The notes beneath the pieces were generated by a model. It saw nothing but the letters and a program-made list of their open reading frames with translations, did no database searches and had not been told where the DNA came from. DNA of 37,104 nucleotides from Trueperaceae bacterium (GTDB lineage Bacteria; Deinococcota; Deinococci; Deinococcales; Trueperaceae), in the NCBI GenBank assembly GCA_035703635.1, contig DASSXV010000035.1:1-37104 (forward strand), in the 5' to 3' direction. The position numbers and the translations under genes are program-made. Shown piece after piece: positions 5,388-23,352 of the stretch (position 1 is the first letter of the stretch; the number at the start of each line of letters is the position of its first letter).

Positions 5388-6512
5388 TTAGGAAGCGCTG
5401 ATCGGCGCCTCGAACCCATCGCCCTCGTGGGCCACGAACGCCGCTATGAAGGTGTCGTACGAGGTTGACTTGTCGCTCTGCTGCCTGATGTCGCCCTCGG
5501 CGAACGCGGCTTGGAAGGTTCGCAGCACCTCGGGGTCGAAGTGCGTGCCGCTGCCTTCGTCCAGCAACTGCAGCGCTTCCTCGACGGGCATCGGCCGGCG
5601 GTAAGGCCTTTCGCTTGTGATCGCCTCGAACACGTCGGCCACCGCGATGATGCGGCCGAACAACGGGATCTCGCTGCCGACCAACCTCCGCGGGTAACCC
5701 GTGCCGTCCCACTTCTCGTGGTGAGAGTAGACGCCCGCGCCTATCTGCAAGAACGCGTCAGACACGGAAACCAAGATGTCGCGGCCGAGGCGGGCGTGGT
5801 GACGCATGACCGCGAACTCCTCGTCAGTCAACGGCCCTGGCTTGCGCAAGATGGCCTCAGGCACGCCGATCTTGCCCAGGTCGTGGAGCAGCCCGGACCA
5901 GTAGAGCTGGTTGAGGTCGTCCTCCGCCAAACCGAGCCTGCGTCCGATGGTGACGGCGTTCTCGGCGACGCGCTCGCAGTGGCCCGAAGTTCCTTCGTCG
6001 CGCTGCGCGACCATGCCTGCGAACAGCCGCAGGTTCCGCGAGTAGGTCTGCGACAGCGAGGCCTGCAGCCGCTCAGAGCGGGCCAACCGCACGCGCAGGA
6101 GCGATGCGGCCGCCCCGATGATCACGCCAGTGAACGCGAACAGCAGCAGCCGGAACAACCACGTCGCCGTCGGCTGCCGTAAGGCCTCAGCTGTGTCCAA
6201 CGCCGTGAACGGCCCGACGAGCAGGCCCGCAGTCACGCCAGCTACCAGGCCGCCGCCCGTGCCGTAAAGGAACGCGGACGCAGCGATCGTCACGTACATG
6301 AGGTGAAGGGCCGAGTGCTGCGTGCCACCCGTAGCCAGCACGAGCGCCGCGATCGCCAACTGCGTGGCGACGAGACCCGCCGTAAGCACCAACCTCCAGG
6401 CCGGGCGCGGCGACCACAACGTGTCCGCAAACCAACCGATCCGCCGGGCAACGGGCCCCTCTAACAGCCCCCCGGCTGCCGGTGACACCGGGATAGTCGG
6501 TGAAGTCCTCAT
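5388..6512 (-). CDS. HD-GYP domain protein with N-terminal membrane domain (probable cyclic dinucleotide phosphodiesterase)
   Basis: HCERV, LLHDLGKIG, HHEKWDGTGYP, ADVFEAITSERPY, HFDP; 4 hydrophobic segments at the N-terminus. Confidence 0.9.
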   Translation of the reverse strand: MRTSPTIPVSPAAGGLLEGPVARRIGWFADTLWSPRPAWRLVLTAGLVATQLAIAALVLATGGTQHSALHLMYVTIAASAFLYGTGGGLVAGVTAGLLVGPFTALDTAEALRQPTATWLFRLLLFAFTGVIIGAAASLLRVRLARSERLQASLSQTYSRNLRLFAGMVAQRDEGTSGHCERVAENAVTIGRRLGLAEDDLNQLYWSGLLHDLGKIGVPEAILRKPGPLTDEEFAVMRHHARLGRDILVSVSDAFLQIGAGVYSHHEKWDGTGYPRRLVGSEIPLFGRIIAVADVFEAITSERPYRRPMPVEEALQLLDEGSGTHFDPEVLRTFQAAFAEGDIRQQSDKSTSYDTFIAAFVAHEGDGFEAPISAS

Positions 6513-6712
6513 AGCCCTCCAACGACGGCGCGCGCGGTCTCAACCCCCTGAACGTGCGCGGCGCCTAGCTTGGATTGTCGGCCGTTGGCGGAGAAGTCGA
6601 AGCTAGGGTTCTCACATCGGTGGGGTTCTGCCTACTCCCCCTAGGCTGCAGCCAACTTCCCCGACACCTCGAAGGTCCCCCTCGCCTAGTCTCACTCCAG
6701 GAGGAGACCGGC

Positions 6713-7318
6713 GTGCACGAAGCGACCAAACAACCCGTTGCTAGCGGCATCCGCTCCTGTGGTCAGGCTCTTGTTAGGCGCTGGGCAGCGCCGCTTTCGC
6801 TCTGCATACTGCTTGCCGGCTCCGTAGTTGCCGCCCCCGCCTACCTCGGCGCCCGCGCCAGTCGGGCCTGGAACGCCACCCCGTTCAGCGTCTCGTCCGT
6901 GCCCGTCGTGCTGCAAGCGGCGCGTAACGACTGCGGACCCGCCGCTCTGGCCGCCCTCCTCATCTGGGCAGACCGGGCAACACCGTTGGCGACCATCACG
7001 TCTGCAGCACGCCTTGGGCCAGACGGCATCAGCCTGGGCGAGTTCGCTCGCGTTGCCGAGGCGTTCGGGCTGCCGGGCGCTTGGTACCACCTTGAGGCCG
7101 ATCGCTTAACGACGGTCGGAACTCCGTTCGTTGCTCACGTAACAGCCGCTACCGGCACGCCAGGCGCTTCGCAACTCGGCCACCTGGTCGTCGTGTGGGC
7201 TGCCGGCGGCGGCGCGGTGCTCCTCTCCGACCCGGCCGTCGGCGCCAGCGTCGTGCCGCTCGCCGAGTTCGCGCGCCGTTACACGGGTAGGGCGTACCTC
7301 TTGGGGACCGACTCATGA
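6713..7318 (+). CDS. Stand-alone C39-family cysteine peptidase with N-terminal signal/anchor
   Basis: Q-x4-DCGPAAL (catalytic Cys), GISLGEF, GHLVVV (His), DPAVG, EFARRYTG. Hydrophobic N-terminal stretch. AGGAGG RBS before GTG 6713. No ABC domains. Confidence 0.85.
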   Translation: MHEATKQPVASGIRSCGQALVRRWAAPLSLCILLAGSVVAAPAYLGARASRAWNATPFSVSSVPVVLQAARNDCGPAALAALLIWADRATPLATITSAARLGPDGISLGEFARVAEAFGLPGAWYHLEADRLTTVGTPFVAHVTAATGTPGASQLGHLVVVWAAGGGAVLLSDPAVGASVVPLAEFARRYTGRAYLLGTDS

Positions 7319-8814
7319 CCCGCTCCTTCACTGCGGGCCTGGTCAGCGCCACGCTGTTGGCCGTCGCTACGCGCCCTTGGGGCCTGGCGTTCCTTGCGTG
7401 GGTGGCGTTAGTGCCTGCCTTCCTAGCAATGTGCCTAGCCGCTTGGCGCAACCGCGGGGCGCTGATCGCGGGCACAACGGGCTTCATCGCCGCCATCGGC
7501 TTCACGTCCGTGGCGTACGAGGCCGTCCTCGGCCTCTCCCTAACGGCTTACGTTGCCGTGGTCCTCGGCGCCGCGGTGCCTTTCGGCTTGACGGCTGCCG
7601 CTGCTACTTGGGCCGTTAGGCGCCTCGGTTCTGGCAGCGCCTTGTTGGCCTACCCAGCGTTCTGGTGCGCGGCCGAGGTGTTCGTGCGCCAAGAGTGGCT
7701 GCTCGGCCGCTGGAGTTTGCAGCTCTCGGCCATCGGCTACACGCAGTCAGGCAGCGCCGCCGTGCACCTCGCGCGCTTCAGCTCCGTCACCGCCGTCAGC
7801 CTCGCCATCTTGGTGGTTAACGGCGCGCTGGCCACGTGGCTGCAAGGCTCGGGGCGTCATCGCGGCGCTTTCGGGCTGGCCGTCGTGGCGCTAGCCGTGT
7901 GGCTGGCGTGGCGCACCGCTCCGCCGCTACACACTGGCGGCACGCCTGACGCCCTCACGCGCGTTAGCGTGCTGCAGCCTGGCCTGCCAGCAGCGGCGCG
8001 CGGCGCGGCTCTGCACCACCCTGGAGTCGCTAGCGAGTTGCTGGCCCACTTGGCGGAGTTGAGCACGCCGGCCGGGGGAGAGAGGCAAGGACCCGCCACG
8101 CCGCTCGAGCCCGCACTCGAGATCTGGCCCGAGGCCGTATGGCCCGGCCGGTTGCGGCACGCAGGCACGCTGTCTGCGCCGGTTTCACCCCTCGTAGCAG
8201 GGCAACTGGCGAACCGTCCCCCGATTCTGCTTGGCGCCGCCAGCCATCACACTTTCACCGGCGCAGCTAGCAACGCGGCGTTCACCCTGACAGGCACGAC
8301 CCTCACGCATGTATTCGACAAGCGGCACCCAGTTCCCCTTGCTGAGGATGGCCTCGCAAGGTCCACCGGTCCGGTGGTCGTGAGCCTGGGCGGGGTACTA
8401 GTGGCGCCGCTCATCTGTTACGACGTTGCCTTCCCGGCCACGGTGCGCGCAGCTGCGCGCACCGGAGCGGAGTTGCTCGCCGTTCTCACGGACGACACTT
8501 TCGCCGCCGGAAGCGACGTTCCTCTTCAACACCTACGCGTGGCGCAGCTCCGCGCGGTCGAGAGCGGCATGTGGTTGGCCTTCGCCTCCAATGGCGGACC
8601 AAGTGCCCTCATCGACCCAGCCGGGCGGCTCGCGGTCCTCTCCGGGCTCGGAGAGACCGTGGTGCTGAGCGCCATGACGAGGCTAGGGACCGGCTCGACC
8701 CCGTACTTGACTTACGGGGACTGGGTCGGGGTGCTCGCCTGCCTGGCTAGTGCGGGCATGGCGGGCGTTGCGGGGCTAAAGGGGGGTGCAAGTCGGTTAC
8801 CGCAGCCAACCTGA
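7315..8814 (+). CDS. lnt: Apolipoprotein N-acyltransferase (Lnt)-family protein, divergent
   Basis: Multi-TM N-terminus plus nitrilase fold with E-K-C triad: IWPE, DKRHPVPLAE, ICYD. Also RAVESG and TPYLTYGDW. ATGA overlap with the C39 gene. Confidence 0.82.
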   Translation: MTRSFTAGLVSATLLAVATRPWGLAFLAWVALVPAFLAMCLAAWRNRGALIAGTTGFIAAIGFTSVAYEAVLGLSLTAYVAVVLGAAVPFGLTAAAATWAVRRLGSGSALLAYPAFWCAAEVFVRQEWLLGRWSLQLSAIGYTQSGSAAVHLARFSSVTAVSLAILVVNGALATWLQGSGRHRGAFGLAVVALAVWLAWRTAPPLHTGGTPDALTRVSVLQPGLPAAARGAALHHPGVASELLAHLAELSTPAGGERQGPATPLEPALEIWPEAVWPGRLRHAGTLSAPVSPLVAGQLANRPPILLGAASHHTFTGAASNAAFTLTGTTLTHVFDKRHPVPLAEDGLARSTGPVVVSLGGVLVAPLICYDVAFPATVRAAARTGAELLAVLTDDTFAAGSDVPLQHLRVAQLRAVESGMWLAFASNGGPSALIDPAGRLAVLSGLGETVVLSAMTRLGTGSTPYLTYGDWVGVLACLASAGMAGVAGLKGGASRLPQPT

Positions 8815-8842
8815 AGCCCCTCGCTACCCGATCGGAGTAACC

Positions 8843-9463
8843 ATGCTCGGAGTACCAGTGAAACGCCTCGCCCTATGGACCGTAAGCACCTTCTTGCTCA
8901 TGCTCCTCGCCAGCCCCGTCCAGTCGGCAACCGCAGCAGCCGACCTCGCGCCAGTCGGTGCACTCGAGCTCGTGAACGTCACGGCGGGCATCTGCCTCAA
9001 CTGCCCGCCAGAACAGCCGGCCGACCCCAAGCCGCCCAAGCCACCCAAGCTCACGGGCTACGTGTGGGAGCTCACCAGCTCCAAGCACTACGCCCCAACT
9101 CAGCTCAGTTACGCGCTCGCACGGGAATACGTCAACTCGTCCACCATGAACGTCAATTACACCTTCACCTACAGCGACGAGTGCACGCACGTCCTCACAA
9201 GCGGCGGCATCGGCATCTCCTCCTCCCTTAACCTCTCGGTCGGCACCGTGTACAAGTGCGCTGCACAGGACACCATGGAGATATCCGTTGCTCCCCGCAC
9301 ACGCGTGAAGCTCTACCGCGGCGCAATGCGCCAACTCGCCACCTACGTGGCCCACGAACTAGCCGTATACAGCGACGGATCGACCTCCCGCACCGGCCGT
9401 TCCGACAGCGGCACGACCGAAACCCGCTACTACCGCTACAACACCATTTCCAACCCACTCTAG
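8843..9463 (+). CDS. Secreted protein: signal peptide, double-glycine-like leader and Ser/Thr-rich beta domain (putative C39 substrate)
   Basis: GGAG RBS and ATG at 8843. Signal peptide MLGVPVKRLALWTVSTFLLMLLASPVQS, then LAPVGALELVNVTAG, ICLNC, a Pro/Lys linker and a beta-rich domain; 206 aa. Confidence 0.7.
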   Translation: MLGVPVKRLALWTVSTFLLMLLASPVQSATAAADLAPVGALELVNVTAGICLNCPPEQPADPKPPKPPKLTGYVWELTSSKHYAPTQLSYALAREYVNSSTMNVNYTFTYSDECTHVLTSGGIGISSSLNLSVGTVYKCAAQDTMEISVAPRTRVKLYRGAMRQLATYVAHELAVYSDGSTSRTGRSDSGTTETRYYRYNTISNPL

Positions 9464-9473
9464 GCACGACAAC

Positions 9474-9504
9474 GGTGGTGGGCCTAACCTAAAGGCCCAC
9501 CACC
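9474..9504 (+). other. Intergenic stem-loop (12-bp perfect stem, no U-tract)
   Basis: GGTGGTGGGCCT-aacctaa-AGGCCCACCACC, 10 nt after the 9463 stop. Confidence 0.7.
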
Positions 9505-9526: not shown

Positions 9527-10417
9527 ATGCGCGAGCTCCCCAACGCCGCACACCGCCGTAGGCCAGTCCCGCGGACGCTCCTCAAGTGGGTGGCGGTCAG
9601 CGCCATTTGCGCCCTGACGACCACGGCACTTGCCGCCACGCCGCTGGTCGGCATTCACTACCAGGACCTCGAACCCGGCTCTACCGGCGAGATAACCATC
9701 GTCTTGCCGAACCCTGGGCTGGCGGACCCAACAGGCTTCGCGGCCACCTCCCACGACGCCTGCCTCAGCGTCGGCGACCTTTACAACACCCGCTTCGACA
9801 TCTGGCGCCTACCGGCAACCCTGTTAGGTGGGGAGGCGTGCCATGCCACCGTCACCGTCAGCGCACAGAGTAGTGCTGGCGAGTGGAGTGGCCTACTGTT
9901 CATCACGCTCAACCCCGTCACAGACGCCGCGCCCTTGGACCCCGACGCTGGGCTGACCCTCCGTTACGGCTCACGCACACCGTGGCTCGAAGTAACCGAA
10001 ACTCAGGCCCCGTACGCCTACGCGCAGCACGCGACCACCATCGCCGAGTTCACCTTCGAGAACGGCGCGGCGGCGCCCATCGCGATCATGAGCTTGAGCG
10101 TCGACCCCGACCGCCTAGCATCGTTGAGCCCCACGTTCTCACTTCATCAAGCGGGCGGCACGGTCGCTTACCAGCCCGTCTCGCCCGCTAGGTTCCCGCA
10201 GATTCGAGCCGCTCGAGGCGAGGGACTGGCTAGCCTTCAACCAGGCGGCACCGCGACCCTAGCCGTGGCCGTCGGAGCGGAGGCCGGACGGGGCAGCGAA
10301 CGCCTGGCAATCACGCTTGGCCTGCTACCGATCGTGCAGCTAGCCGGTGAGCACTACTACCTAACTGGAGCGGTGGCCACCTACTACTTCGAAGGCCAAG
10401 CGCATGGCACCCCTTGA
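9527..10417 (+). CDS. Hypothetical exported protein, beta-rich/Ig-like
   Basis: AAGGAG RBS before ATG 9527. Basic n-region (HRRRP), hydrophobic core and ALA cleavage motif. FENGAAAPIAI and LQPGGTATL are typical of Ig-like sandwiches. Confidence 0.6.
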   Translation: MRELPNAAHRRRPVPRTLLKWVAVSAICALTTTALAATPLVGIHYQDLEPGSTGEITIVLPNPGLADPTGFAATSHDACLSVGDLYNTRFDIWRLPATLLGGEACHATVTVSAQSSAGEWSGLLFITLNPVTDAAPLDPDAGLTLRYGSRTPWLEVTETQAPYAYAQHATTIAEFTFENGAAAPIAIMSLSVDPDRLASLSPTFSLHQAGGTVAYQPVSPARFPQIRAARGEGLASLQPGGTATLAVAVGAEAGRGSERLAITLGLLPIVQLAGEHYYLTGAVATYYFEGQAHGTP

Positions 10418-11861
10418 CGGGGCCCGGTGGGCGCTGCGCGCTTGCCTGCGCATGGGCGCCAGAGCTGGAACGCGCTTCACGCTCTGCACGCTCCTCGCTA
10501 TGGCCGCAGCACAAACCGGTTCTCCGGCTGCTGCGTCAACACCAGGCGCCGCGCTCAGCCCCTTCGGGACGTTGTTGGCGCTGTTCGACTCCGCCTACGC
10601 CCCGTCAGCCGCACTGAAAGCCGAGGCCGCCGCCCTGGCGGGTATGGCTCGAGACGCCTCGCTCGCCCAACTGCCCTCCTTCTCCGCCACCGAAAGGCTG
10701 GCGTGGCACGACTACGGCGCTCTCGGGATAAGCCTCGAACTCGCCGCCGAGCTACCCATCTACCGCTCACTTGCAGCGCCAACCGCTGCCATGCAGGCTC
10801 ACCGCGAGGCCACCCAGGCCTCCCGCGCAGCCGCGGCCGCGGCTGCCGCTCGCGCGCAATTCGTCCTGACGGTCCTGGCACTGGCGCTCACTCAGGAGCT
10901 CGAGCATGAAGCCACCGCGGCCACCGCCAGGTTCGCTGCGGAGGTCTGGCAGCCGCCAACCAACCTGGCCGACGCCCTGCACGTCGCCCCGTCAGAGCGC
11001 GAGCTGCTAGCGCTCTACCGCAGCGTCGTGAACCTCGCCGAGTTCGCAGCGGGCAACGCTGCCGAACTGCGCCGCGAACTAACGCGCACGCTCGGCACCT
11101 CCGTTACGGACTTGCCGCTACCGAAGTTCGCCGCAGCCATCGCGGCACTCGACATGGCGCCGCCCACGCTCGACTCCTGCCTCGCCACCGGACCCGAAGC
11201 TAGCGCAGCGCGCCAACGCTTCGAACAACGCCTGCTCGGGTTGACGCTCGAGCGCACGACCGAGCTAGAGGTGAACCTCTTCGGGCAAGTCGGCTACCAA
11301 GGAGGGTTCGGGGCCGGCGCGACCGGTGTGGCGCCTTCGGTAGCTGGACTTCAAGCACAACTTGGGGTCGCAGTGCGCCTGGCCATGCCGGATGGGTGGC
11401 CCGTGTCCGGCGAGGTCGGCGCTACGGCGCACCTCGGCGGCGCAGAGCAGACTCTCTCGCTGAGTTGGCCGCCGGTAAGGCGAAACGCGCACTCATTAGG
11501 TCACGCCGCGGCACTGGAAGACGCCAGCGGCGTGTTGGCGGCGGAGCTCGCGCAACTGACTTCCGAAGCAAGCACCCAGCTGCGCGCCTACGCGGACGCC
11601 ACAGCAGCCGTCGAAAACGCGGAGGCGCAGCTCTTGTGGCTCGCCTTTGACGTTCACCCAGACGCGCTCGACCTAGACTCCGCCAGAACTCTGGCCAGCC
11701 GTACGTTCGACAACCCAGTGCTCGAGCTCCACGCCGTGAGCTACCGCGCCGACGTCGCCTTCGCGCAGCTCACCCTTGCAACGCAGTTGGCTGACCTACA
11801 AGTCCTCTGCGGCGTCGGCGCGCTAGGCACGGTGCGCGCAGGCGAGGTCGCGCTGCCATGA
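10404..11861 (+). CDS. TolC/outer-membrane efflux-like protein (divergent)
   Basis: Signal-like N-terminus. Twice-repeated pattern of long Ala/Leu/Glu helices followed by amphipathic beta pairs (LPSFSATERL...GISLELAAELPIY; LEVNLFGQVGY...LQAQLGVAVRLAMP). True start may be 10452. Confidence 0.55.
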   Translation: MAPLDGARWALRACLRMGARAGTRFTLCTLLAMAAAQTGSPAAASTPGAALSPFGTLLALFDSAYAPSAALKAEAAALAGMARDASLAQLPSFSATERLAWHDYGALGISLELAAELPIYRSLAAPTAAMQAHREATQASRAAAAAAAARAQFVLTVLALALTQELEHEATAATARFAAEVWQPPTNLADALHVAPSERELLALYRSVVNLAEFAAGNAAELRRELTRTLGTSVTDLPLPKFAAAIAALDMAPPTLDSCLATGPEASAARQRFEQRLLGLTLERTTELEVNLFGQVGYQGGFGAGATGVAPSVAGLQAQLGVAVRLAMPDGWPVSGEVGATAHLGGAEQTLSLSWPPVRRNAHSLGHAAALEDASGVLAAELAQLTSEASTQLRAYADATAAVENAEAQLLWLAFDVHPDALDLDSARTLASRTFDNPVLELHAVSYRADVAFAQLTLATQLADLQVLCGVGALGTVRAGEVALP

Positions 11862-12931
11862 GGCGCCCTCAGGGCGCGCGGTTCGGTGAGTTCGCGCCCG
11901 CTTGCCGGGTCGTGGGTGGCGCTGCGCTCGCAATCGTCGTCGGCTTCGCGCTGCTTGCCTTCTCTGAGCTGTGGGTTGGCTCCGCCACGCTGCCGCGGTG
12001 GCTCCCGCCGCCGCCGTACTGGGTCGGCCGCACCCTGCATGGCCTGCCGTTCGCCAAGTCCGCCCCCTGGAAGTTAGTGCGCTACAAGCTAGTCGGAGTG
12101 TCTCTCCAGGCCACCGCGCTGCCCCCCTGGTCGGACGCGCACACGCCGGCACAAGCAGCGTTGAGCGCTGGCAGCTATCTCGGTTGGACCAGCGCTACCG
12201 GCGGAAGCCTCACGTTCTACGGTCACGCCTGCACGCCAGCTGACCCCGTGGCCGCCCTCACCCTGCGCGGGACCAGGGAGGACGTCGAGTTCACGGGCGC
12301 CGCCCTCATCACGGCTGACGCCGACCCTGACGTCGGCTACTCCCTACCGACTACCCGCCTCACGGGCCCGCTGCCGATTGGTGACCTGGGTTCAACGGCT
12401 CTCGCACGCTGCCGCTCGGGCGCCGAGGCGCTCCATCAACTTGGGGCCGTGCGGGTTGCCGAAGCGCCAGGCAACCCAGCCAACCTGCAAGTGCACCTCT
12501 CCACATGGCCCGCGGCGGGGGTGTACGCCGAGCTCGTCGTCGTGAACCCTGGCCCCGCCAGCCTAGTCGTCACAGGCGTCGAGTATGCCCCCGCCCAAGC
12601 CGCCACCGGCAGGGTGCGCGTGATGACTGGCCCCGCCGTCCAGCCGCCCGCGCTGAGCGGAACACCTAGCGCGGCACAAGTGAACGAGTTCCAGCGCGCC
12701 AAACGCGCGCTCGTAACTAGCGGCAACCTGCCCGTTGACAACGCTGACGCGCTCTCGATCGTGCTGCGATCATCCGAGGCCGCCTTGATCGTCATCGACC
12801 AGGGCTCGTTTCACCCGACGCGGCCACAACTGCCAGCATTCTTCTACCCAGTCGTCTCATATGAGAGCCCCAGCGGTGCCGGAGCCGCACTAGTATCCGA
12901 TCGGTTCGCTGTGGGCTGGACCTGGCAGTAG
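11858..12931 (+). CDS. Hypothetical membrane-anchored protein with a C-terminal Ig-like domain
   Basis: ATGA overlap with the upstream gene; one N-terminal TM helix; VVNPGPASLVVTGVEY motif. Confidence 0.6.
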   Translation: MRRPQGARFGEFAPACRVVGGAALAIVVGFALLAFSELWVGSATLPRWLPPPPYWVGRTLHGLPFAKSAPWKLVRYKLVGVSLQATALPPWSDAHTPAQAALSAGSYLGWTSATGGSLTFYGHACTPADPVAALTLRGTREDVEFTGAALITADADPDVGYSLPTTRLTGPLPIGDLGSTALARCRSGAEALHQLGAVRVAEAPGNPANLQVHLSTWPAAGVYAELVVVNPGPASLVVTGVEYAPAQAATGRVRVMTGPAVQPPALSGTPSAAQVNEFQRAKRALVTSGNLPVDNADALSIVLRSSEAALIVIDQGSFHPTRPQLPAFFYPVVSYESPSGAGAALVSDRFAVGWTWQ

Positions 12932-13002: not shown

Positions 13003-13187
13003 CCTTATTTGCCGCGCGTTAGTCTGGCTAGTCCAACGATGCGTGGTGGCGAGCCGATGCTGGGGAAGGTGAGCGCAGGCCGGAGGTCGGCCTGGCGCGT
13101 CGTGTCGCTCCGAACGCAGCCGCGTGTGGAGAGCACAGCGCGCGTCTCTCACGAGACCGAGTGCCACCAGCCTGGAAGGAGGTGCAC

Positions 13188-13538
13188 ATGTCAAACACCA
13201 CCAAGTACGATCTCAACGTCATCCTTGACCCGAGCCTTAGCGAACAGCAGGTCCAGTCGGAGAAAGACGCCGTTGCGCTCCAAGTCGAGCGCGCGGGAGG
13301 TGAGATCCTCTCTGTCGACGAGTGGGGAATGCGCCGTCTGGCGTACCCGATCCGCAAAGGCAACGAGGGCTACTTTCTCATCTATCGCCTACACCTGAGC
13401 GGCGAAAGCCCCAAGACCATCGAAGCTGCGTTACGCCAACGCGATAACGTCATGCGAGTCCTGGTCGTCCGGGAACGCCCGGAGTGGAAGACGAAGAAAG
13501 AACCGAAGGTCGAAGGCAAGGCCGAGGCCGCTGCCTAA
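13188..13538 (+). CDS. rpsF: 30S ribosomal protein S6
   Basis: KYDLNVILDP, WGMRRLAYPIRKGNEGYF, NVMRVLVV; AAGGAGG RBS; first gene of rpsF-ssb-rpsR-rplI. Confidence 0.97.
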   Translation: MSNTTKYDLNVILDPSLSEQQVQSEKDAVALQVERAGGEILSVDEWGMRRLAYPIRKGNEGYFLIYRLHLSGESPKTIEAALRQRDNVMRVLVVRERPEWKTKKEPKVEGKAEAAA

Positions 13539-13576
13539 GCCAAGAATCTATTGACGAGCGGTTGGGGAGTCATCTC

Positions 13577-14407
13577 ATGGCACGTGGTTTGAACAACGTT
13601 TACCTTGTCGGCACGCTGGTTCAGAAACCAGATCTGCGCTACACCCCCGGTGGGTTAGCCATCTTGGAGATGAACTTGGCGGGCAATGACAACGTCATGG
13701 GAGATGACGACCAACCTCGCGAGTTGGCCTGGTACCACCGCGCAACGCTCTTCGGGGCGCAAGCGGAGATGATGGCCGACCAACTGCAAGAGGGCACCGC
13801 CGTGTTCGTCGAGGGACGCCTCAACTACCGCACCTGGGATGCCCAGGACGGCCAGAGGCGCTCAGCTCTCGACGTGAACGCGCAACGCGTTGACGTGGTC
13901 ACCCCGGGCGTACGCTCGGGCGAAGCCACCGTGATCGACGCGCGTGGCCAGCACCGGCTCAAGAACGCGCTCAATCAGGTGCTCATAGTAGGCAACCTGA
14001 CACGCGACGCCGAGATGCGCTCAACGCCCTCAGGGGCGTCCGTCACGCGCTTCGGAGTGGCGGTCAACGAGCGTTTTCGGGGCAAAGGCGGAGACGATCA
14101 GGAGCGCACTCACTTCGTGGACGTCACCGTGTGGCGCGAACTCGCGGAAGGTTGCGAGGCTCTTCGCAAAGGCGACGGTGTGTTCGTGATCGGCAGGCTC
14201 GTCAATGATTCTTGGACCGACAAGGAAGGTAACCGTCGGTTCACGACGCGGTTAGAAGGACAACGCGTCGAGTTCCTCTCTCGCGGTCCCGGCAGCGGTG
14301 GAGCCGGAACCCGTACGGAGCGCACCGTCGCTACCGGCGCCCAGGCGAGTTCGTCGAAGTTGGATATCGACGAAGAGTTTCCACCAGAAGAGGACCTACC
14401 CTTCTAG
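13577..14407 (+). CDS. ssb: Single-stranded DNA-binding protein, Deinococcus-Thermus two-OB-fold type
   Basis: MARGLNNVYLVG...PDLRYTPGG and a second OB fold LNQVLIVGNLTRDAEMRSTPSG; C-terminal EEDLPF. Confidence 0.97.
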   Translation: MARGLNNVYLVGTLVQKPDLRYTPGGLAILEMNLAGNDNVMGDDDQPRELAWYHRATLFGAQAEMMADQLQEGTAVFVEGRLNYRTWDAQDGQRRSALDVNAQRVDVVTPGVRSGEATVIDARGQHRLKNALNQVLIVGNLTRDAEMRSTPSGASVTRFGVAVNERFRGKGGDDQERTHFVDVTVWRELAEGCEALRKGDGVFVIGRLVNDSWTDKEGNRRFTTRLEGQRVEFLSRGPGSGGAGTRTERTVATGAQASSSKLDIDEEFPPEEDLPF

Positions 14408-14698
14408 ATGGCTAGAGAAGCAAGAGACAAGGGCGGCGATCGCGATCGCCGCCGTGGACGTGGAGGCGGCCGTCGCGGTCGTCGCCCACGCGTTTGCCCG
14501 TTCTGCGCGGGTGAATACGAGATCATGGATTACCACGACGGTCGGGTGCTTCGGCGCTTCATCTCCGATACCGCCAAGATCCTTCCCCGTCGTCGCACCG
14601 GTGTATGCGCCAGGCACCAGCGTCGGCTCGCCACCACGATCAAGCGTGCGCGCATGCTCGCGATCATCCCCATCACTGAGAAGCTGGTGCGGAAATGA
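14408..14698 (+). CDS. rpsR: 30S ribosomal protein S18 (zinc-ribbon form)
   Basis: CPFC...DYHDGRVLRRFISDTAKILPRRRTGVCARHQR...IKRAR. Confidence 0.96.
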   Translation: MAREARDKGGDRDRRRGRGGGRRGRRPRVCPFCAGEYEIMDYHDGRVLRRFISDTAKILPRRRTGVCARHQRRLATTIKRARMLAIIPITEKLVRK

Positions 14699-15147
14699 AC
14701 GTCATCCTGCTTGAGCCCGTCGAGAAGTTGGGCGAAGCAGGGGAAGTCGTCCGTGTAAAGGACGGCTACGCCCGTAACTTCCTCGTCCCGCGCGGCCTAG
14801 CGCTGCCAGCGACGAAGTCCAACCAGGCCGAACTTCAGGCGCGCCTCGCGCAACGCGCACGCCAGTTGGCGGAGCGCAAGTCCGACGCGGAGCGCCTCGC
14901 CAGCATGCTCGGTGACGCCCACGTTGAGATCCGCGTCAAGGCTGGCGAAGGCCGCATCTACGGCTCGGTCGGCAACCGCGATATCGCGGATGCCCTCAAG
15001 GCCGCCTACGACGTCGAGATCGATCGCCGCAAGGTGTTGCTCCTCGAGCCGATCAAGGTAACTGGCGAGTACGCGGTTCCGTACCGCCCGCACCCGGAAG
15101 TCACGATCGATCTCAAGGTGCTCGTCGTCTCCGACGAAGAAGCCTGA
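14695..15147 (+). CDS. rplI: 50S ribosomal protein L9
   Basis: MNVILLEPVEKLGEAGEVVRVKDGYARNFLVPRGLA; GRIYGSV. Confidence 0.97.
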   Translation: MNVILLEPVEKLGEAGEVVRVKDGYARNFLVPRGLALPATKSNQAELQARLAQRARQLAERKSDAERLASMLGDAHVEIRVKAGEGRIYGSVGNRDIADALKAAYDVEIDRRKVLLLEPIKVTGEYAVPYRPHPEVTIDLKVLVVSDEEA

Positions 15148-17991: not shown

Positions 17992-19083
17992 TTACGCAGT
18001 CCTGAGGGGTACTACCATCGCGAGGTAACTCGGGTCGCCAAGGTCAGTGATCACGCTGGGCGCCGAGTTGGTGCCTGAGAAGCTCAGGCGCACGTCGCCG
18101 TTCACGGGCGCAACCGCATCGACGAGGTACTTGCTGTTGTAAGCCAAACCGATCTCTGAGTCGGTGCCTTCCTGTATGACGGGGATGGCCTCCTGGCTTC
18201 GGCCGAAGCTCCCTTCGGCCGTGATCTGCAGTTCACCATCCTTGATGAACAGGTCTACGCGGTTGTTGGTGGTCTTGTCAGCCATGAGAGCCACGCGGGC
18301 GACGGCCTCCGCGAGGCGAGTCGATCCGAGAGTGATGCTGACGGGGAAGTTCTTGGGGATCACCCGCTCGTAGTCAGGGAAGGTTCCCTCCATGAGCTTG
18401 AGGTTTAGCGCGTAATTACCGTGCTGCACGCTAAGTTGGCCGGGCTCGAGGGCGAGCTTGACCTCGCCTTCGTCGAGCACTCTCAGTAGCTCTTCGACGC
18501 TGCGTGCCGGCACGATGATGTCGGCCTGAAGGCCAGAACTCTCTGCTATATCGAAGTAGGCCAGCCTGAAACCATCCGTTGCCACCGTGCGAGTGCGACC
18601 GTCGGCGAGTTCGAGCTTCACACCCCGGAAGACGGCCTGGAAATCAGCTACAGCCGCGGCATATTTGACGGCGGCCAGGCCACGCGCGAACCGTGGTGCG
18701 TCGAGCGCGCCAGAGAACTCGGTTGCGAAGTTGAGCATGGGAGCGGAGCCGGGCGCCATCAATTGCAGTTTCGTAGCGAAGCCGCCAGAGCGCAGTTGCA
18801 GTTCGTCTTCAGCGAACTCTAGTTCGACGTCGTCTGACGGTAGAGCCCTTACGACTTGGCTGAACACGTGGCCCAGGACGGCGTAACTACCGCGCCCAGG
18901 TGAGTCGGCCGCGAAGCGGGCACGGATGTCAACGTCCATGTTCGACCCACTGAGTTCCATGCCGTCCTCGCTGACATCGATGCGCAGCAAGCTCAACCCT
19001 GGGTTGCTTGAGCGGCTGGGAACGATCCGCTCAACGCGAGCGAGCGTTTCGGCAAGGCTCTTCTTTGGGACGAGCACCTTCAT
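17992..19083 (-). CDS. dnaN: DNA polymerase III beta sliding clamp
   Basis: VATDGFRLA, EGTFPDYERVIP, YNSKYLVDA, VVPLR; downstream of dnaA. Confidence 0.97.
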   Translation of the reverse strand: MKVLVPKKSLAETLARVERIVPSRSSNPGLSLLRIDVSEDGMELSGSNMDVDIRARFAADSPGRGSYAVLGHVFSQVVRALPSDDVELEFAEDELQLRSGGFATKLQLMAPGSAPMLNFATEFSGALDAPRFARGLAAVKYAAAVADFQAVFRGVKLELADGRTRTVATDGFRLAYFDIAESSGLQADIIVPARSVEELLRVLDEGEVKLALEPGQLSVQHGNYALNLKLMEGTFPDYERVIPKNFPVSITLGSTRLAEAVARVALMADKTTNNRVDLFIKDGELQITAEGSFGRSQEAIPVIQEGTDSEIGLAYNSKYLVDAVAPVNGDVRLSFSGTNSAPSVITDLGDPSYLAMVVPLRTA

Positions 19084-19370
19084 ACGACACTCCTGTGATT
19101 CATTCCGCTAAGCGCCAAAGTCGTCGTGGCTGATCAAGAGGGGCAATAGCGCCAGGCGTTGGGTCTCACGAGCGACCCGGGCTAGAGCATACATCGTGAG
19201 CTACGTAGCTGGCGCGGCGGGCCGTTTGCAGTTGTGTGGGCCAGCGCTTCGATTGGCTTGGTTGGCTGAGGTTAGCTCGTGGCGCGAGGGTTTCGCTTGG
19301 CTGCTAGGCTCAGGCCTAGGTGCTCTAGGTTGTGACTTAGGAATCTCTCAATTTTGAAGGGGAACACCCG

Positions 19371-19577
19371 TAATAGTAGGGGGTGTGGAAACTGTGGAAA
19401 GGTACCCTGTTTGAGTCTGGGCCGAGGTAATGGCTGTTGAGGGAAATGTGGATAACTAGCACCTCGTTGTGGATAAGTACGCTGGTCTTCCACTCTCGTC
19501 CACAGCGCGTCTAGCACACAGATAATCCACAACTGGATACACAGCTTGTAGACAGGTTATCCATAGAGTTGTCCACA
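19371..19577. other. oriC: Chromosomal replication origin oriC (DnaA boxes and DnaA-trios)
   Basis: Perfect TGTGGATAA at 19447 and 19468. Variants TGTGGAAAC 19384, TGTGGAAAG 19393, TCGTCCACA 19496, TAATCCACA 19523, GGATACACA 19535, TTATCCATA 19557, TTGTCCACA 19569. TAATAGTAG trios at 19371. Lies between dnaA and dnaN. Confidence 0.93.
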
Positions 19578-19607
19578 GGCACATTGTGTTCAGATATACG
19601 TTCGACT

Positions 19608-19630
19608 GCGGGCGGCCCACGGCCGCCCGC
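19608..19630 (-). other. GC-rich hairpin between the dnaA stop and the DnaA-box array
   Basis: GCGGGCGGCC-cac-GGCCGCCCGC, 10-bp stem; no clear U-tract. Confidence 0.55.
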
Positions 19631-19651
19631 GCTGCGAAGTAGGTCGACGAC

Positions 19652-20995
19652 TTATACGAGGGTTTCGCGGATGGAACGGACGGCTCTTGCCAGGTCGCTA
19701 TCGCTGTCGCTCGTGTTCTGGATCTTCTGGACGGCGTACATGACGGTGGAGTGATCGCGCCCCGAAAAGTAGCCGCCAATCTCGGGGTAGGAGTGGGTCG
19801 TCAACTCCCTTATCAGGAACATGGCTATCTGGCGCGGCACCACGAGTTCCTGTCGCCTGCCTTTGCCGCGGACATCGTCTGGCTTAACGCCGAAGTGATC
19901 AGCGGTTCGCTTGAGGATGTCGGGCATGGTCAGCGCTATCTCGCTTGGTGCGAAGACATCTGACAGGGCCTTGGCGACCGTCTGGCGGTTGAGCGGCGAC
20001 TGGTTCATCGAGGAGTAGACGATGGCTCTGACGAGCGCGCCTTCCAGCTCGCGGATGTTCGAGGTCACGTGCCTTGCGATGTAGTCGATGACCTCGGCAG
20101 GTACCTTCACACCCCGATACTCCGCGTTCATCGCCAGGATCGCTATGCGCGTCTCAAGCTCGGGTGCCTGGATGTCGGTTATCAGCCCCCACTCGAAGCG
20201 GCTACGCAGGCGCTTCTCTAGTGTCGGGATGTCCTTCGGGGGCCGGTCGGATGACACGATAAGCTGCTTGCCCGACTCGTAGAGCGCGTTGAAGGTGTGG
20301 AAGAACTCCTCCTGCGTGCGCTCCTTGCCCGCGATGAACTGGATGTCGTCGATCAGTAGCACGTCGATCGTGCGGTAGCGGTCCCTGAACTGCGTCATCC
20401 GGTCCTCGCGGATGGCCGTGATGAGGTCGTTCGTGAACGCCTCGGTGGTCACGTACTCCACTTGGAGGTTCGGTTGGCGTTCGAAAGCCGCGTGCCCGAC
20501 GGCGTGCATGAGGTGCGTCTTACCGAGCCCAGCTTCGCCGTAGAGGAAAAGAGGGTTGTATGCGCGGCCAGGGGCCTCGACCACGGCGCGCGCCGCGGCG
20601 TTGGCGAGGTTGTTGTTCGGACCGACGACGAAGTTGGCGAAGACGTACTTGGGGTTGAGCGTCGGCTTCCTGGCGATGGGCTTTTCGCTGTTCACCAGCT
20701 CTATAGGTGGCGCGCTGAACATGTCCCGCTGCTCGGTTACCTGCGTAGGCACGACCTGGAACGTCACCTTCGGTGAGTCCATGCCGAGCCCGCGCAGGGC
20801 TTCCTCGATGACTTCCGTGTAGTTTGTGCGTAGCCAATCGCGAGCGAAGCCGTGAGGTACGGCAAGGACGAACGCACCGTCGACGAAGCCGTGCGGCGTC
20901 ACCTGGGCGAACCAGGTGCGGAACTCTACCTCGGGGATCTGTGCGCGAACGAGCGCGATGACGTCGTCCCACATCCCCTCCAGCTTGGCCGCCAT
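19652..20995 (-). CDS. dnaA: Chromosomal replication initiator DnaA
   Basis: YNPLFLYGEAGLGKTHL, LLIDDIQF, QEEFFHTFN, RSRFEWGL, NIRELEGAL, GRDHSTVMYA; AAGGAG RBS. Confidence 0.99.
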   Translation of the reverse strand: MAAKLEGMWDDVIALVRAQIPEVEFRTWFAQVTPHGFVDGAFVLAVPHGFARDWLRTNYTEVIEEALRGLGMDSPKVTFQVVPTQVTEQRDMFSAPPIELVNSEKPIARKPTLNPKYVFANFVVGPNNNLANAAARAVVEAPGRAYNPLFLYGEAGLGKTHLMHAVGHAAFERQPNLQVEYVTTEAFTNDLITAIREDRMTQFRDRYRTIDVLLIDDIQFIAGKERTQEEFFHTFNALYESGKQLIVSSDRPPKDIPTLEKRLRSRFEWGLITDIQAPELETRIAILAMNAEYRGVKVPAEVIDYIARHVTSNIRELEGALVRAIVYSSMNQSPLNRQTVAKALSDVFAPSEIALTMPDILKRTADHFGVKPDDVRGKGRRQELVVPRQIAMFLIRELTTHSYPEIGGYFSGRDHSTVMYAVQKIQNTSDSDSDLARAVRSIRETLV

Positions 20996-21525
20996 CGCAC
21001 TACCTCTCCTTCGTCCTCTATCGCCTTAGCCGCAAGCGCGACTGCCTTCGGCGTCGACCCGCTGCTCCGCTGACCCCTAACTGCTCGCGCCAGCCAAGTC
21101 GCGGGACACCGATTCTGGCACCCACCGCCCGGTTGGGGCAAGCGCCTCGGAGGCGGTCGGTCAGGCGCGTGCGCAGACCCGCCCCAGCAGCTTCATCCAA
21201 GCCCAAGGGCCGTTAGTAGACTCCAAGTCCTGAGATCGTGGGGCGAAGCTACACCTCGAGGCGCGCCCGAGTGCTCGTGGGACACGTCGTTGATCGCGGT
21301 GCGCCGCAGGCCAGGGCAGTGTATCAGAGATGGCGGCGGCACCCGCCCCTGGCGACGGCAGAGCGCGCCACGGAACCGAGCGGCCGCCTTCATGGCCTTT
21401 TGGTGTTCGAGCCGTTGGCCTTACCGAGCGACGGCTCACCTGTCGCTATACTCTGGTGCGCTCATGGCCGCGGCCACTAGGGACTGGTAGGCCGTGGGAG
21501 GTGGGAACCCAGAACGGAGGGGCAG

Positions 21526-23352
21526 ATGAAGTTCGAGTTCGACGTTGTCGTCATCGGTGGCGGGCATGCAGGCATCGAGGCAGCGGTTGCCGCCGGCCGC
21601 CTGGGTTCACGTACCGCCATGGTCCTGCCGAACCCAGACAAGATCGGGGTCATGCCTTGTAACCCTGCCATCGGTGGGCCAGGCAAGTCGCAACTCGTGT
21701 ACGAGCTGCATGCGCTGGGTGGCGTTATGGGGCGGCTAGCCGACCAGACCGCCATCCATACCCGCACGTTGAACGCCTCGAAAGGCGCAGCCGTTCAGTC
21801 ATTGCGCGTGCAGAACGAACGTGACGGCTATGCTGCGGCAGCCAAGTCCTTGGTAGAGAACCAGCCTGGCGTCGAGATCGTGCGGGCGGAGGCGGCGGAG
21901 ATTCTCACTGAAAACGGCGTGGTAGTCGGCGTTTCCACGACCGACGGTCGCGTTCTGGCGTCACCCACGGTCGTGCTTTGCACGGGGACGTTCCTGGCCG
22001 GCGTCGTGTGGTACGGCACGCGGCAACGGCCGGCGGGGAGGCAGGGCGAGGCTCCAGCTCGGCACCTGTCCGCGTCGCTGCGCGCTACCGGGCACGACCT
22101 GATCCGCCTGAAAACTGGGACCCCGCCGCGCATCCGGGCTGATTCCGTGGACCTCAGCGTGCTTCAGGAAGTCCCATCGGACGACCCACCCCGCACTTTC
22201 AGTGGCGTGCCCGGGCCTCGCATGACGAGCACCCCTACCTGGCTTACCCGGACGACGTCGGCCACACATGCGCTCATTCATGAGCATCTGGGCGAGTCGG
22301 CCATGTACAGCGGCGAGATAGAGGGCACCGGGCCGCGTTACTGCCCATCTATCGAAGACAAGGTCGTGCGCTTTTCCGACAAGGACCAGCACCTCTTGTT
22401 CGTTGAACCGGACGGGCTAGACACGAGCGAGCTTTACCTGCAGGGACTGTCGAGCTCGATGCCGCCTCAGGTGCAGGACCTGATGATCAAGACGCTTCCA
22501 GGTTTTGAGCGAGCAGCGATTCACCGTTATGCCTACGCCGTCGAGTACGACGCGCTCGACCCTGCGCAGCTTGACGTGACTCTTATGTCCCGCAAGTTGC
22601 CAGGGCTCTTCTCCGCCGGCCAAATCAACGGTACTAGCGGGTATGAGGAGGCCGCAGCGCAAGGGCTCATAGCTGGCATCAACGCCGCTCGACACGCTGC
22701 CGGCATGAGCCGAGTTACGGTGCGCCGCGACCAGGGCTACCTTGGCGTCATGCTCGATGACCTAGTGCGCTGGGGCATCGAGGAGCCGTACCGCATGCTC
22801 ACCTCGCGGAACGAGTACCGGCTCCTGCACCGCCAAGACAACGCGAACGAGCGCCTGATGGGAGTCGGAAACGAGTGGGGCCTGGTCCCTGACGCCGCTC
22901 TGGCCCGGCACCAGGCCTCTGAAGAGCGCGTACAGCGCGAATTGCGGCGGCTGGGCAGCTCCCGCCATGGCGGCGACCTGGCCACGACCATGCTGTGTCG
23001 TCCAGGCGTCGAGTACGCTGCAGTGACCGACCTCGTGGGCAGCGCCGCCGACGACCTAACGCAAGATGAGGTTGAGCGGGTCGTAACGCTGGTGCGCTAC
23101 GCGGCTTACATCGAGCGCGCACGCAAGCAGCTTGATGGTAGGGCGGCATACGAGAAGGTGAGCCTCGAGGGAGTCGATCTCGAGCACGTCGCTAGCTTGT
23201 CGACGGAAGGACTCCAGGCGCTGCGCCGCGCAGCCCCGCTCACGCTCGGCGCCGCTCAGCGCGTGCGTGGTGTGCGAGACAGCGACGTGGCGGCGCTGCT
23301 GGTTCACCTTCGCGGTCGGCGTCAACCAGCCCACCACGCCTTGGTCGGATAG
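21526..23352 (+). CDS. mnmG: tRNA uridine 5-carboxymethylaminomethyl modification enzyme MnmG (GidA)
   Basis: VIGGGHAGIEAA, MPCNPAIGGPGK, RLKTGTPPR, GPRYCPSIEDK, AGQINGTSGYEEAAAQG, EPYRMLTSR. Confidence 0.98.
   Translation: MKFEFDVVVIGGGHAGIEAAVAAGRLGSRTAMVLPNPDKIGVMPCNPAIGGPGKSQLVYELHALGGVMGRLADQTAIHTRTLNASKGAAVQSLRVQNERDGYAAAAKSLVENQPGVEIVRAEAAEILTENGVVVGVSTTDGRVLASPTVVLCTGTFLAGVVWYGTRQRPAGRQGEAPARHLSASLRATGHDLIRLKTGTPPRIRADSVDLSVLQEVPSDDPPRTFSGVPGPRMTSTPTWLTRTTSATHALIHEHLGESAMYSGEIEGTGPRYCPSIEDKVVRFSDKDQHLLFVEPDGLDTSELYLQGLSSSMPPQVQDLMIKTLPGFERAAIHRYAYAVEYDALDPAQLDVTLMSRKLPGLFSAGQINGTSGYEEAAAQGLIAGINAARHAAGMSRVTVRRDQGYLGVMLDDLVRWGIEEPYRMLTSRNEYRLLHRQDNANERLMGVGNEWGLVPDAALARHQASEERVQRELRRLGSSRHGGDLATTMLCRPGVEYAAVTDLVGSAADDLTQDEVERVVTLVRYAAYIERARKQLDGRAAYEKVSLEGVDLEHVASLSTEGLQALRRAAPLTLGAAQRVRGVRDSDVAALLVHLRGRRQPAHHALVG

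Follow-up and report, generated by a model that had tools for sequence, protein, structure and literature searches.

How is an exported protein matured when its signal peptide is followed by a second leader, of the double-glycine type that C39 peptidases recognise? This question is raised by a gene at positions 8843-9463 (+) of a 37,104-nucleotide stretch from a Trueperaceae bacterium (assembly GCA_035703635.1, contig DASSXV010000035.1), the whole of which is called the window here. The gene encodes a precursor, referred to below as the cargo, of 206 amino acids (aa), or 201 aa if translation starts at GTG 8858. The precursor consists of a signal peptide, a double-glycine (GG)-type leader, an xCxxC motif, a Pro-rich linker and a predicted aerolysin-fold domain. 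The predicted Sec signal peptide and a short spacer occupy 8843-8941 (+). They have a Lys/Arg n-region, a hydrophobic stretch and, in an AlphaFold2 model, a helix over residues 2-17, and are compatible with more than one signal peptidase I (SPase I) site. The leader, positions -12 to -1, lies at 8954-8989 (+) and ends in Ala-Gly. A codon check places Leu at 8945, Val-12 at 8954, Glu-8 at 8966, Leu-7 at 8969, Val-4 at 8978, Ala-2 at 8984 and Gly-1 at 8987, followed by Ile at 8990, Cys at 8993 and Cys at 9002 within the predicted mature N-terminus Ile-Cys-Leu-Asn-Cys (8990-9004, +). The reading frame, leader and N-terminus thus stand where the original prediction, made from this DNA alone, had put them. 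Cargo residues are numbered from 8858, which makes Gly-1 residue 44 (Gly49 when counted from 8843).

The leader motif is real and conserved. Taken alone, the cargo sequence is modest evidence for it, because 46 instances of the strict motif turn up in the 2919 likely coding frames of this genome, which total 1.04 million residues; by eye, only the cargo's copy follows an evident signal peptide. Conservation makes the case. From 63 aligned cargo rows, three were dropped as more than 90% identical, leaving 60 non-redundant homologs, and across these the motif is kept at the positions that C39 peptidases recognise. Position -12 is Leu, Ile or Val in 59/60, -8 is Glu or Asp in 50/60, -7 is Leu in 51/60 (hydrophobic in 53/60) and -4 is Val, Ile or Leu in 58/60. 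At -2 there is Gly in 33 and Ala in 27, the window cargo having Ala, and Gly at -1 is present in all 60. Cys is found at +1 in six homologs and at +2 in 54, and the second Cys of xCxxC is invariant in the alignment. The full strict motif is retained by 43 of the 60. Information content is 2.8 bits at -12, 2.8 at -8, 3.5 at -7, 3.2 at -4, 2.8 at -3, 3.3 at -2, 4.3 at -1, 3.6 at +2 and 3.2 at +5; flanking positions mostly have 1.0-1.8 bits and the folded domain averages 1.9. Because conservation peaks at known C39-recognition positions, the alignment argues for a leader that is read by a C39 peptidase. For the C39 protein LahT150, the residues at -4, -7 and -12 must be hydrophobic and lie on a short helix, and a leader without Glu-8 is tolerated (PMC6363468). 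The window leader has Val, Leu and Val at -12, -7 and -4, and the AlphaFold2 model predicts a helix over -10 to -4. In 61 of the 63 rows the hydrophobic core of the signal peptide ends 19-56 residues before Gly-1; the N-terminus of the other two was probably cut short in extraction.

A candidate enzyme is encoded two genes upstream, as had been noted at the outset. The gene at 6713-7318 (+) encodes a standalone C39 cysteine peptidase of 201 aa with a likely GTG start; the longest frame begins at 6575 (open frame about 201-247 aa, end 7318). It matches PF03412 with 61.3 bits against a cut-off of 22. The Gln, Cys, His and Asp expected of this family are encoded at 6914, 6932, 7181 and 7229 and are invariant in 36/36 aligned cargo-associated C39s. 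A hydrophobic segment at residues 28-46 is preceded by basic residues, and an N-terminal hydrophobic segment was seen by eye in all C39 homologs printed. The enzyme is thus predicted, from these sequence features, to be membrane-anchored and to face outside the cytoplasm. The best solved relative of the C39 profile is LahT147 (6mpz, E 6e-18). Only C39 domain matches were found in the frame, with none to the fused ATP-binding cassette (ABC) transmembrane and ATPase domains of peptidase-containing transporters (PCAT, also AMS). Three assignments to named standalone families were tried with NCBIfam models and rejected: FapD (NF058616, 15.6 bits against a cut-off of 330), FilB (11.7 against 475) and the PA2778 family (12.5 against 150). 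A plasmid search with the C39 returned nine weak matches, six labelled as ABC-transporter peptidases and three unannotated. Other standalone C39 genes, of about 200 aa, occur in families f2 and f4 (L112, L113, L114 and L115) with no match to the cargo or to the other operon genes Lnt and o5 nearby.

Gene content and gene order also link the cargo to this enzyme. We found the cargo in 17/17 other genomes of the genus and in 57 of 128 family genomes, this one included (E < 1e-20; weaker rows in G296 and G300 set aside). The C39 is present in 52 of the 128 (E < 1e-45; weaker rows in G032, G345, G349 and G351 set aside). Both occur in 48 genomes, within 3.2 kb of each other in 43, and 67 have neither. 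In three of the nine cargo-only genomes (G010, G306 and G330) the locus is cut off by a contig end that falls within or next to the intervening Lnt gene. Homologs in genera g19 and g43 (hhalign 94.8%, E 5e-8) have the mature domain straight after the signal peptide, with no leader, and PF03412 has no match in any of the five genomes concerned. That leaderless homologs sit in genomes without C39 again favours pairing of the leader with the peptidase. The initial claim that the cargo is a substrate of this C39 therefore stands as far as the pairing goes, with conservation, synteny, an intact and anchored C39 and the leaderless homologs in its favour; it does not extend to strict dependence, as six reasonably assembled genomes keep the leader and have no detectable C39. 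Among 35 genomes, leader distances correlate with those of C39 (0.61), Lnt (0.51) and the cargo's own domain (0.45), values that are descriptive and not evidence of co-evolution. The g19 and g43 loci (L108:3290-4809, L109:5267-8214 and L117:1-1559) have two tandem cargo-like genes with plain signal peptides and an accessory gene, beside haem biosynthesis genes; L109 also has a gene with weak similarity to o5 (E 0.0014). In family f4 a single Cys-rich gene that weakly resembles the cargo stands in a locus with no C39 or Lnt match (G215, L116:5903-6412, -).

The gene between C39 and cargo encodes a paralog of Lnt, the apolipoprotein N-acyltransferase (7315-8814, +), and overlaps the C39 stop. 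It scores 135.6 bits with TIGR00546 (cut-off 132.9) and has LNT_N and CN_hydrolase domain matches. The catalytic Glu (8131), Lys (8320) and Cys (8416), with a second Glu (8344), are invariant in 36/36 sequences. A further, housekeeping Lnt is encoded elsewhere in this genome, on contig C56, and the paralog is not its ortholog. A quick tree was made from 53 rows, with midpoint rooting, no outgroup and the careful search unfinished. It groups the C39-linked Lnts in a single clade of 46, with a support of 100 in the approximate likelihood ratio test SH-aLRT, and separates them from the C56 copy and six rows from genus g14. Matches to the paralog (E up to 1e-62) occur in 58/127 other family genomes, 7/19 of family f5 and 1/125 of family f2. 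Searching all GTDB species with this one protein, which barely probes the range outside the phylum, gave ten loci, eight strong and two weak, the latter from other phyla. In the loci examined the paralog follows C39 directly. Even where C39 lies apart from the cargo (G023, G029, G031 and G313) it immediately precedes the Lnt paralog, and in 4/4 of these genomes the pair follows a gene for a LuxR-type regulator (L142:8190-8732, L143:8028-8726, L144:4441-5028 and L145:7491-8168).

Several further loci bear on the range of this Lnt group. A related Lnt paralog occurs with a C39-like protein lacking the catalytic Cys at L105:5324-9351, L110, L111:5356-9337, L107, L162, L163, L165 and L166, the loss being seen directly in L105, L111, L163 and L166. 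An Ig (immunoglobulin)-domain lipoprotein is encoded near the pair in L105, L110, L111 and L162, and a secreted protein with a conserved N-terminal segment in L105, L111 and L162. These loci are possibly a second cargo system with a non-cutting C39. In family f2 (G178, L160:11589-13172, -) an Lnt paralog with no C39 match lies three genes downstream of a secreted protein that has CxxC and a Pro/Ser-rich linker directly after its signal peptide, like the predicted mature N-terminus of the cargo. This protein is a candidate leaderless substrate of the Lnt paralog. An intact-looking C39 and Lnt pair in G349 (L104:4619-7785, -) has genes for a small lipoprotein and an acidic secreted protein after it, and a lipoprotein similar to that of G349 is encoded upstream of an Lnt paralog in G036 (L159:6563-10154, +).

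We propose that the operon encodes a dedicated maturation line for the cargo, and put the probability of this reading at roughly 0.55. The cargo would be exported by Sec and its signal peptide cut by SPase I. The outward-facing, membrane-anchored C39 would recognise the leader and cut after Gly-1 outside the cytoplasm, the step that we hold to be highly probable. The adjacent Lnt paralog would N-acylate the new N-terminal amine to give a lipid-anchored cargo without the involvement of Lgt or signal peptidase II (SPase II, Lsp); this step we regard as somewhat more likely than not. Finally, Ig-like and outer-membrane-factor (OMF)-like proteins from the accessory genes would carry or assemble the cargo at the cell surface, where it would oligomerise into an envelope structure of the producer (a pore, a lattice or a fibre) instead of being set free as a toxin. 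For surface assembly the odds seem about even. Seen more generally, the locus would represent a second route to protein lipidation, in which the GG leader and an extracytoplasmic C39 replace lipobox and SPase II and Lnt acylates the exposed residue without prior addition of diacylglycerol; we put this forward tentatively, as a view that falls a little short of an even chance. The acylated residue would then be Ile, Val, Gly, Cys or others, and the cargo a minimal aerolysin fold that forms the cell's own surface assembly, with the same slight balance of doubt.

Family f5 is informative about the residue concerned. Its gene order is cargo, accessory gene, o5, an OmpH-like gene, C39 and Lnt, and four f5 cargos are homologous to the window cargo family (hhalign 97%, E 1e-10). 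Their leader is almost invariant, with an ambiguous register at -2/-1, and their mature parts are 27-47% identical. In either register they would start with poly-Gly, and no Cys is nearby. Thus, the conserved Cys of the window family would not be the lipid site, and an acyl group would go to the free amine.

What would be anchored in this way has the predicted fold of a pore-forming family. Structures were predicted for the cargo and for o6. The cargo model (mean pLDDT, the predicted local distance difference test, 89.3; pTM, the predicted template modelling score, 0.64) has a long beta domain over residues 64-201 (9047-9460, +). Foldseek retrieved aerolysin-family structures throughout the listed rows, best 3kog with E 4e-6. 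The top 15 rows of VIA-align are all aerolysin-type folds (Z 8.2 to 5.0), led by 6lhz (Z 8.2, root-mean-square deviation 4.1, 120 aligned), 5zu4 (7.8), 2ztb (7.5) and 3kog (7.4). An aerolysin fold is defined by a core of several strands that spans two subdomains and by an insertion loop (PMC3110756), and both are present in the cargo model. The mature cargo is therefore predicted to be a minimal single-domain aerolysin fold. Its insertion loop comprises 24 residues, is partly helical in the model and is flanked by a Cys pair (9182, 9257) that covaries, both being present in 34/60 homologs and both absent in 26/60. Positions 113, 124, 126 and 128 of the insertion segment are hydrophobic in 100, 97, 60 and 98% of the 60 homologs, and positions 125, 127 and 129 in 0%; the polar/hydrophobic alternation is clear over 124-129 and weaker over 110-121. 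No Pfam family matches the window cargo, and PDB sequences searched with profiles from the cargo, o5 and o6 alignments yielded no significant match. The Atlas lead to aerolysin scored 0.89, and parasporin-2 appeared at E 1.5 with the first profile and was absent with the second. Asn/Gln-rich amyloid repeats were found neither in the cargo sequence nor in the alignment. 3kog is itself a lipoprotein with a lipobox, and its insertion loop contains a helix (PMC4387736), as does that of the cargo model; a lipid-anchored aerolysin-like protein has been noted in Bacteroides uniformis (PMC3110756). As these two proteins are lipid-anchored, aerolysin folds evidently reach that state by the ordinary route; the window locus may reach it by another.

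Several results weigh against the proposed maturation line or one of its steps. The most serious concerns dependence on C39. In genus g14 all five genomes (62-92% complete) keep the GG leader and have no C39 by profile, PF03412 or PF13529, and four of the five have no Lnt of the C39-linked clade. G312 (95% complete) likewise encodes a cargo and neither C39 nor the C39-linked Lnt paralog. These six genomes, the remainder of the cargo-only set, are the strongest result against strict dependence. In the g14 leaders GG and -4 are retained and Glu-8 is lost in 5/5, which agrees with early decay following one loss event. In the opposite direction, G338 has C39, Lnt, o6 and o5 and no cargo match. The genomes compared are kin and not independent, and the co-occurrence counts represent few evolutionary events. 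The leader itself departs from the canonical cleavage sites GG, GA or GS (PMC10885120, PMC6363468). Gly-Gly is found in 33/60 homologs and Ala-Gly in 27/60, the window cargo among them; Ala at -2 is a real departure. Related C39-Lnt pairs in which C39 has lost its catalytic Cys (L105, L111 and others) indicate that the pairing does not require proteolysis. Lnt acts on diacylglyceryl-Cys. The bulky Ile, Val, Leu or Phe that 36/60 homologs have at +1 is not known as an Lnt substrate. For the fold, none of the Pfam aerolysin/ETX_MTX2 families was found in 41 cargo members at E up to 1, and structural Z-scores of 6-8 are middling even though the ranking of the matched structures is uniform. Lastly, G016 has no o4-o6 beside the cargo.

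The alternative that survives best accepts the cut and moves the acylation. On this reading C39 cuts the leader, which serves as a pro-sequence, the Lnt paralog has another target (a lipoprotein, an accessory protein or the side chain of a Cys), and the cargo is secreted without an acyl group, as a pore-former directed at, for example, competing bacteria. An aerolysin-type fold with an amphipathic insertion segment is what such a toxin would have, and the mature domain diverges faster (mean distance 0.73) than C39 (0.58) or Lnt (0.59). Lnt paralogs of the same clade also occur without a C39 match nearby (L159, L160) and beside other neighbours. However, there is one cargo match per genome, at a fixed locus and with no paralog expansion; no candidate small immunity gene was seen in the operon, and the cargo has no receptor-binding domain. 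C39 and Lnt also remain neighbours at loci away from the cargo, and no lipobox-type substrate was seen by eye in the window operon. We therefore consider release as a toxin unlikely, at something like one chance in a few.

A second alternative leaves the leader uncut. It would be a binding or targeting tag, not needing to be cut by C39, that is read by a C39 fold recruiting for Lnt or by the OMF-like and Ig-like proteins. This would suit the persistence of the leader in g14 and G312, the non-canonical Ala at -2 and the occurrence of this Lnt clade beside C39 domains that have no catalytic Cys; C39-like domains also serve as tethers in type I secretion (PMC6363468). Invariance of Gln, Cys, His and Asp in all 36 cargo-associated C39s speaks for an active peptidase instead, an invariant Gly-1 followed by a free +1 is the pattern of a cleavage site, and the loss of Glu-8 in every g14 leader fits early decay. 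Such a tag is clearly less probable than release as a toxin. Least probable, and in our view very unlikely, is a conventional lipoprotein with a long and unusual signal, in which Lgt would modify the conserved Cys, SPase II cut before it and the Lnt paralog finish: Cys at +1 or +2 in 60/60 (directly after GG in six), an Lnt next door and the lipobox-bearing aerolysin-like proteins of Bacteroides (PMC3110756, PMC4387736) would agree with it, but the residue before Cys is Ile, Val, Leu or Phe in 36/60, unlike a lipobox, the hydrophobic core ends far upstream of Gly-1 in nearly all rows, and C39 is left unexplained. The f5 cargos lack a Cys there, and x-Cys is found in the leaderless homologs as well, behind a site of the SPase I type, which suggests that the Cys is structural. 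A lipobox in the window cargo was rejected directly, as Ile precedes the Cys and the Cys lies more than 25 residues past the hydrophobic core.

The cargo gene and its neighbours have further features. Of the two candidate starts, ATG 8843 and GTG 8858, the majority of homologs start at the position of the latter. In the nearest relative, L002 (94% identical), the codon at this place is GTC. This favours ATG 8843 as a plausible start, and GTG 8858 was rejected as a certain one. A ribosome-binding-site and start motif occurs twice in 8830-8860, near-identical and 15 nucleotides apart, a pattern that may stem from a small duplication by which this lineage gained five N-terminal codons. Immediately downstream of the cargo stop is a GC-rich stem-loop with a 12-bp stem and no U tract (9474-9504, +; -29.9 kcal/mol). 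In 39 relatives tested (one further locus was too short) the hairpin at this place is stronger than an in-gene control in 39/39, with z below -2 in 32/39 against mononucleotide shuffles; hairpins equally strong occur at 3.5% of 400 sampled gene ends of this genome. It likely stabilises the mRNA or attenuates transcription, and fits a cargo transcript in excess over the downstream genes. An envelope component made in abundance would fit the single match per genome, the conserved position and the conserved 3' hairpin. A search of the + strand between 6400 and 13200 revealed neither a sigma-70-like promoter nor a U-tailed terminator. Contigs of four RNA runs from two studies cover parts of the operon at depth 0-9; being contigs they cannot rank the genes, and DNA carry-over is possible.

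Three accessory genes follow. The product of o4 (9527-10417, +) has a predicted signal peptide, is probably Ig-like (Atlas leads 0.86-0.89) and is a weak paralog of o6 (hhalign E 7e-4, probability 26.5); distant loci carry a single gene of the o4/o6 type. The o5 product (10404-11861, +) is weakly like outer-membrane factors (TolC/OEP). The window protein has no Pfam match, and 2/35 family members match PF02321 (best E 2e-7; the L043 member scores 31.2 bits against a cut-off of 22); o5 had no NCBIfam TolC match and no PDB sequence match. The o6 product (11858-12931, +) has an N-terminal hydrophobic helix and a beta-rich region ending in a generic Ig-like domain (PapD/ASH/FixG-type). Its AlphaFold2 model (pLDDT 83.2) gave VIA-align Z-scores of 8.5-6.5 on residues 206-357 with no family standing out, and the Foldseek matches are generic Ig domains, with pilus chaperones among many unrelated proteins. 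As G016 has none of the three beside its cargo, o4-o6 are not obligatory. Since, in addition, L080, L083 and L087 have no o5 match, we regard C39, Lnt and cargo as the core.

Upstream of the operon are a GGDEF-EAL gene and an HD-GYP-like gene (150-2180 and 5388-6512), and an EAL gene directly adjoins C39 in eight relatives (L033-L040); the upstream EAL genes are a weak hint of a surface function linked to cyclic di-GMP. Just downstream of the operon come rpsF-ssb-rpsR-rplI, and dnaN-dnaA and gidA are about 7 kb away from it (13161-15147 and 17992-23352). The ssb gene encodes a tandem-domain form, and the rpsF/dnaA neighbourhood is kept in most members of the genus.

If the proposed maturation line is correct, bacterial protein lipidation needs no lipobox, Lgt or Lsp, and proteins lipidated in this way are invisible to lipoprotein predictors. 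Lipid anchoring via C39 and an Lnt paralog would be an undescribed way of attaching a protein to the envelope. Two features, neither mentioned in the original prediction, set the locus apart: the aerolysin fold predicted for its cargo and, between C39 and cargo, a dedicated Lnt paralog. The locus also supplies a periplasmic C39 with a clearly marked candidate substrate. With it, the predicted range of the aerolysin fold comes to include a gene that is single-copy and syntenic in a non-pathogenic lineage, which raises the question of the role of such folds for the producing cell. Three small genes, C39, Lnt and cargo, suffice for a reconstitution.

A C39-Lnt pair, a Trueperaceae aerolysin-like protein or an Lnt acting without Cys was not found in the open-access literature searched. 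Within that literature, pairing of C39 and Lnt with an aerolysin-fold cargo has no description, and the locus is a variant of the export systems that use a periplasmic C39. The combination of Sec export with a GG leader had been called unusual in the original prediction, which overstates it: the Fap system of Pseudomonas has a periplasmic C39, FapD, with a proposed substrate, FapE, and a barrel, FapF (PMC5557850). The target of FapD has been described as unclear, and a 2026 preprint describes FapD as a protease involved in precursor processing (10.64898/2026.10.01.755530). Fap and the window locus share a standalone, exported C39 (in Fap, catalytically required), a Sec-exported cargo with GG/GA motifs and a dedicated outer-membrane protein. 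They differ in that the window cargo has, by prediction, an aerolysin fold in place of amyloid repeats, the candidate outer-membrane protein resembles OMFs and not FapF, no acyltransferase is part of the fapA-F operon as described, and the window C39 is far below the cut-off of the FapD model. The locus is thus Fap-like in its periplasmic C39 and its Sec cargo with a GG-type motif, and is outside Fap membership. Acinetobacter Fil (FilB) and the PA2778 family also have standalone C39s, and the NCBIfam model of FilB names a putative pilus system; compared by these models alone, the window C39 is far below both cut-offs.

The C39 domains of PCAT/AMS transporters (LahT147 6mpz, ComA and PCAT1) share with the window the recognition of hydrophobic residues at -12, -7 and -4 on a short helix, small residues at -2 and -1, and the Gln, Cys, His and Asp set (PMC6363468, PMC10885120). 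In contrast to these, the window C39 has no fused or adjacent ABC transporter and is predicted to face outward, its leader follows a signal peptide and has Ala-2 in 27/60, and its cargo is a folded protein of 157 residues. DAG-RiPPs, a class that joins the logic of ribosomally synthesised and post-translationally modified peptides to lipidation, differ from the window in using an ordinary lipobox and housekeeping enzymes (10.1101/2025.10.31.685832). With the Lgt-Lsp-Lnt pathway the window shares an Lnt with a membrane domain, a nitrilase fold and an intact Glu-Lys-Cys, proposed to acylate a new N-terminal amine outside the cytoplasm; it differs in that this Lnt belongs to a separate clade tied to C39 and in that the proposed substrate has no lipobox and a variable +1. 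Among aerolysin-family proteins, the cargo resembles 6lhz, Dln1, parasporin-2 and epsilon toxin in its long twisted beta core and in an insertion segment between early and late strands, and the Bacteroides lipoproteins BVU_4064 (3kog) and BF1687 (3g3l) in the helix of that segment and in the proposed lipid anchor. It differs in being a minimal single domain with no lectin or receptor domain, at 6-14% identity, and in its N-terminal xCxxC, its linker of low complexity, the Cys pair that 34/60 homologs have where the insertion loop starts and ends, and the GG leader that replaces a lipobox.

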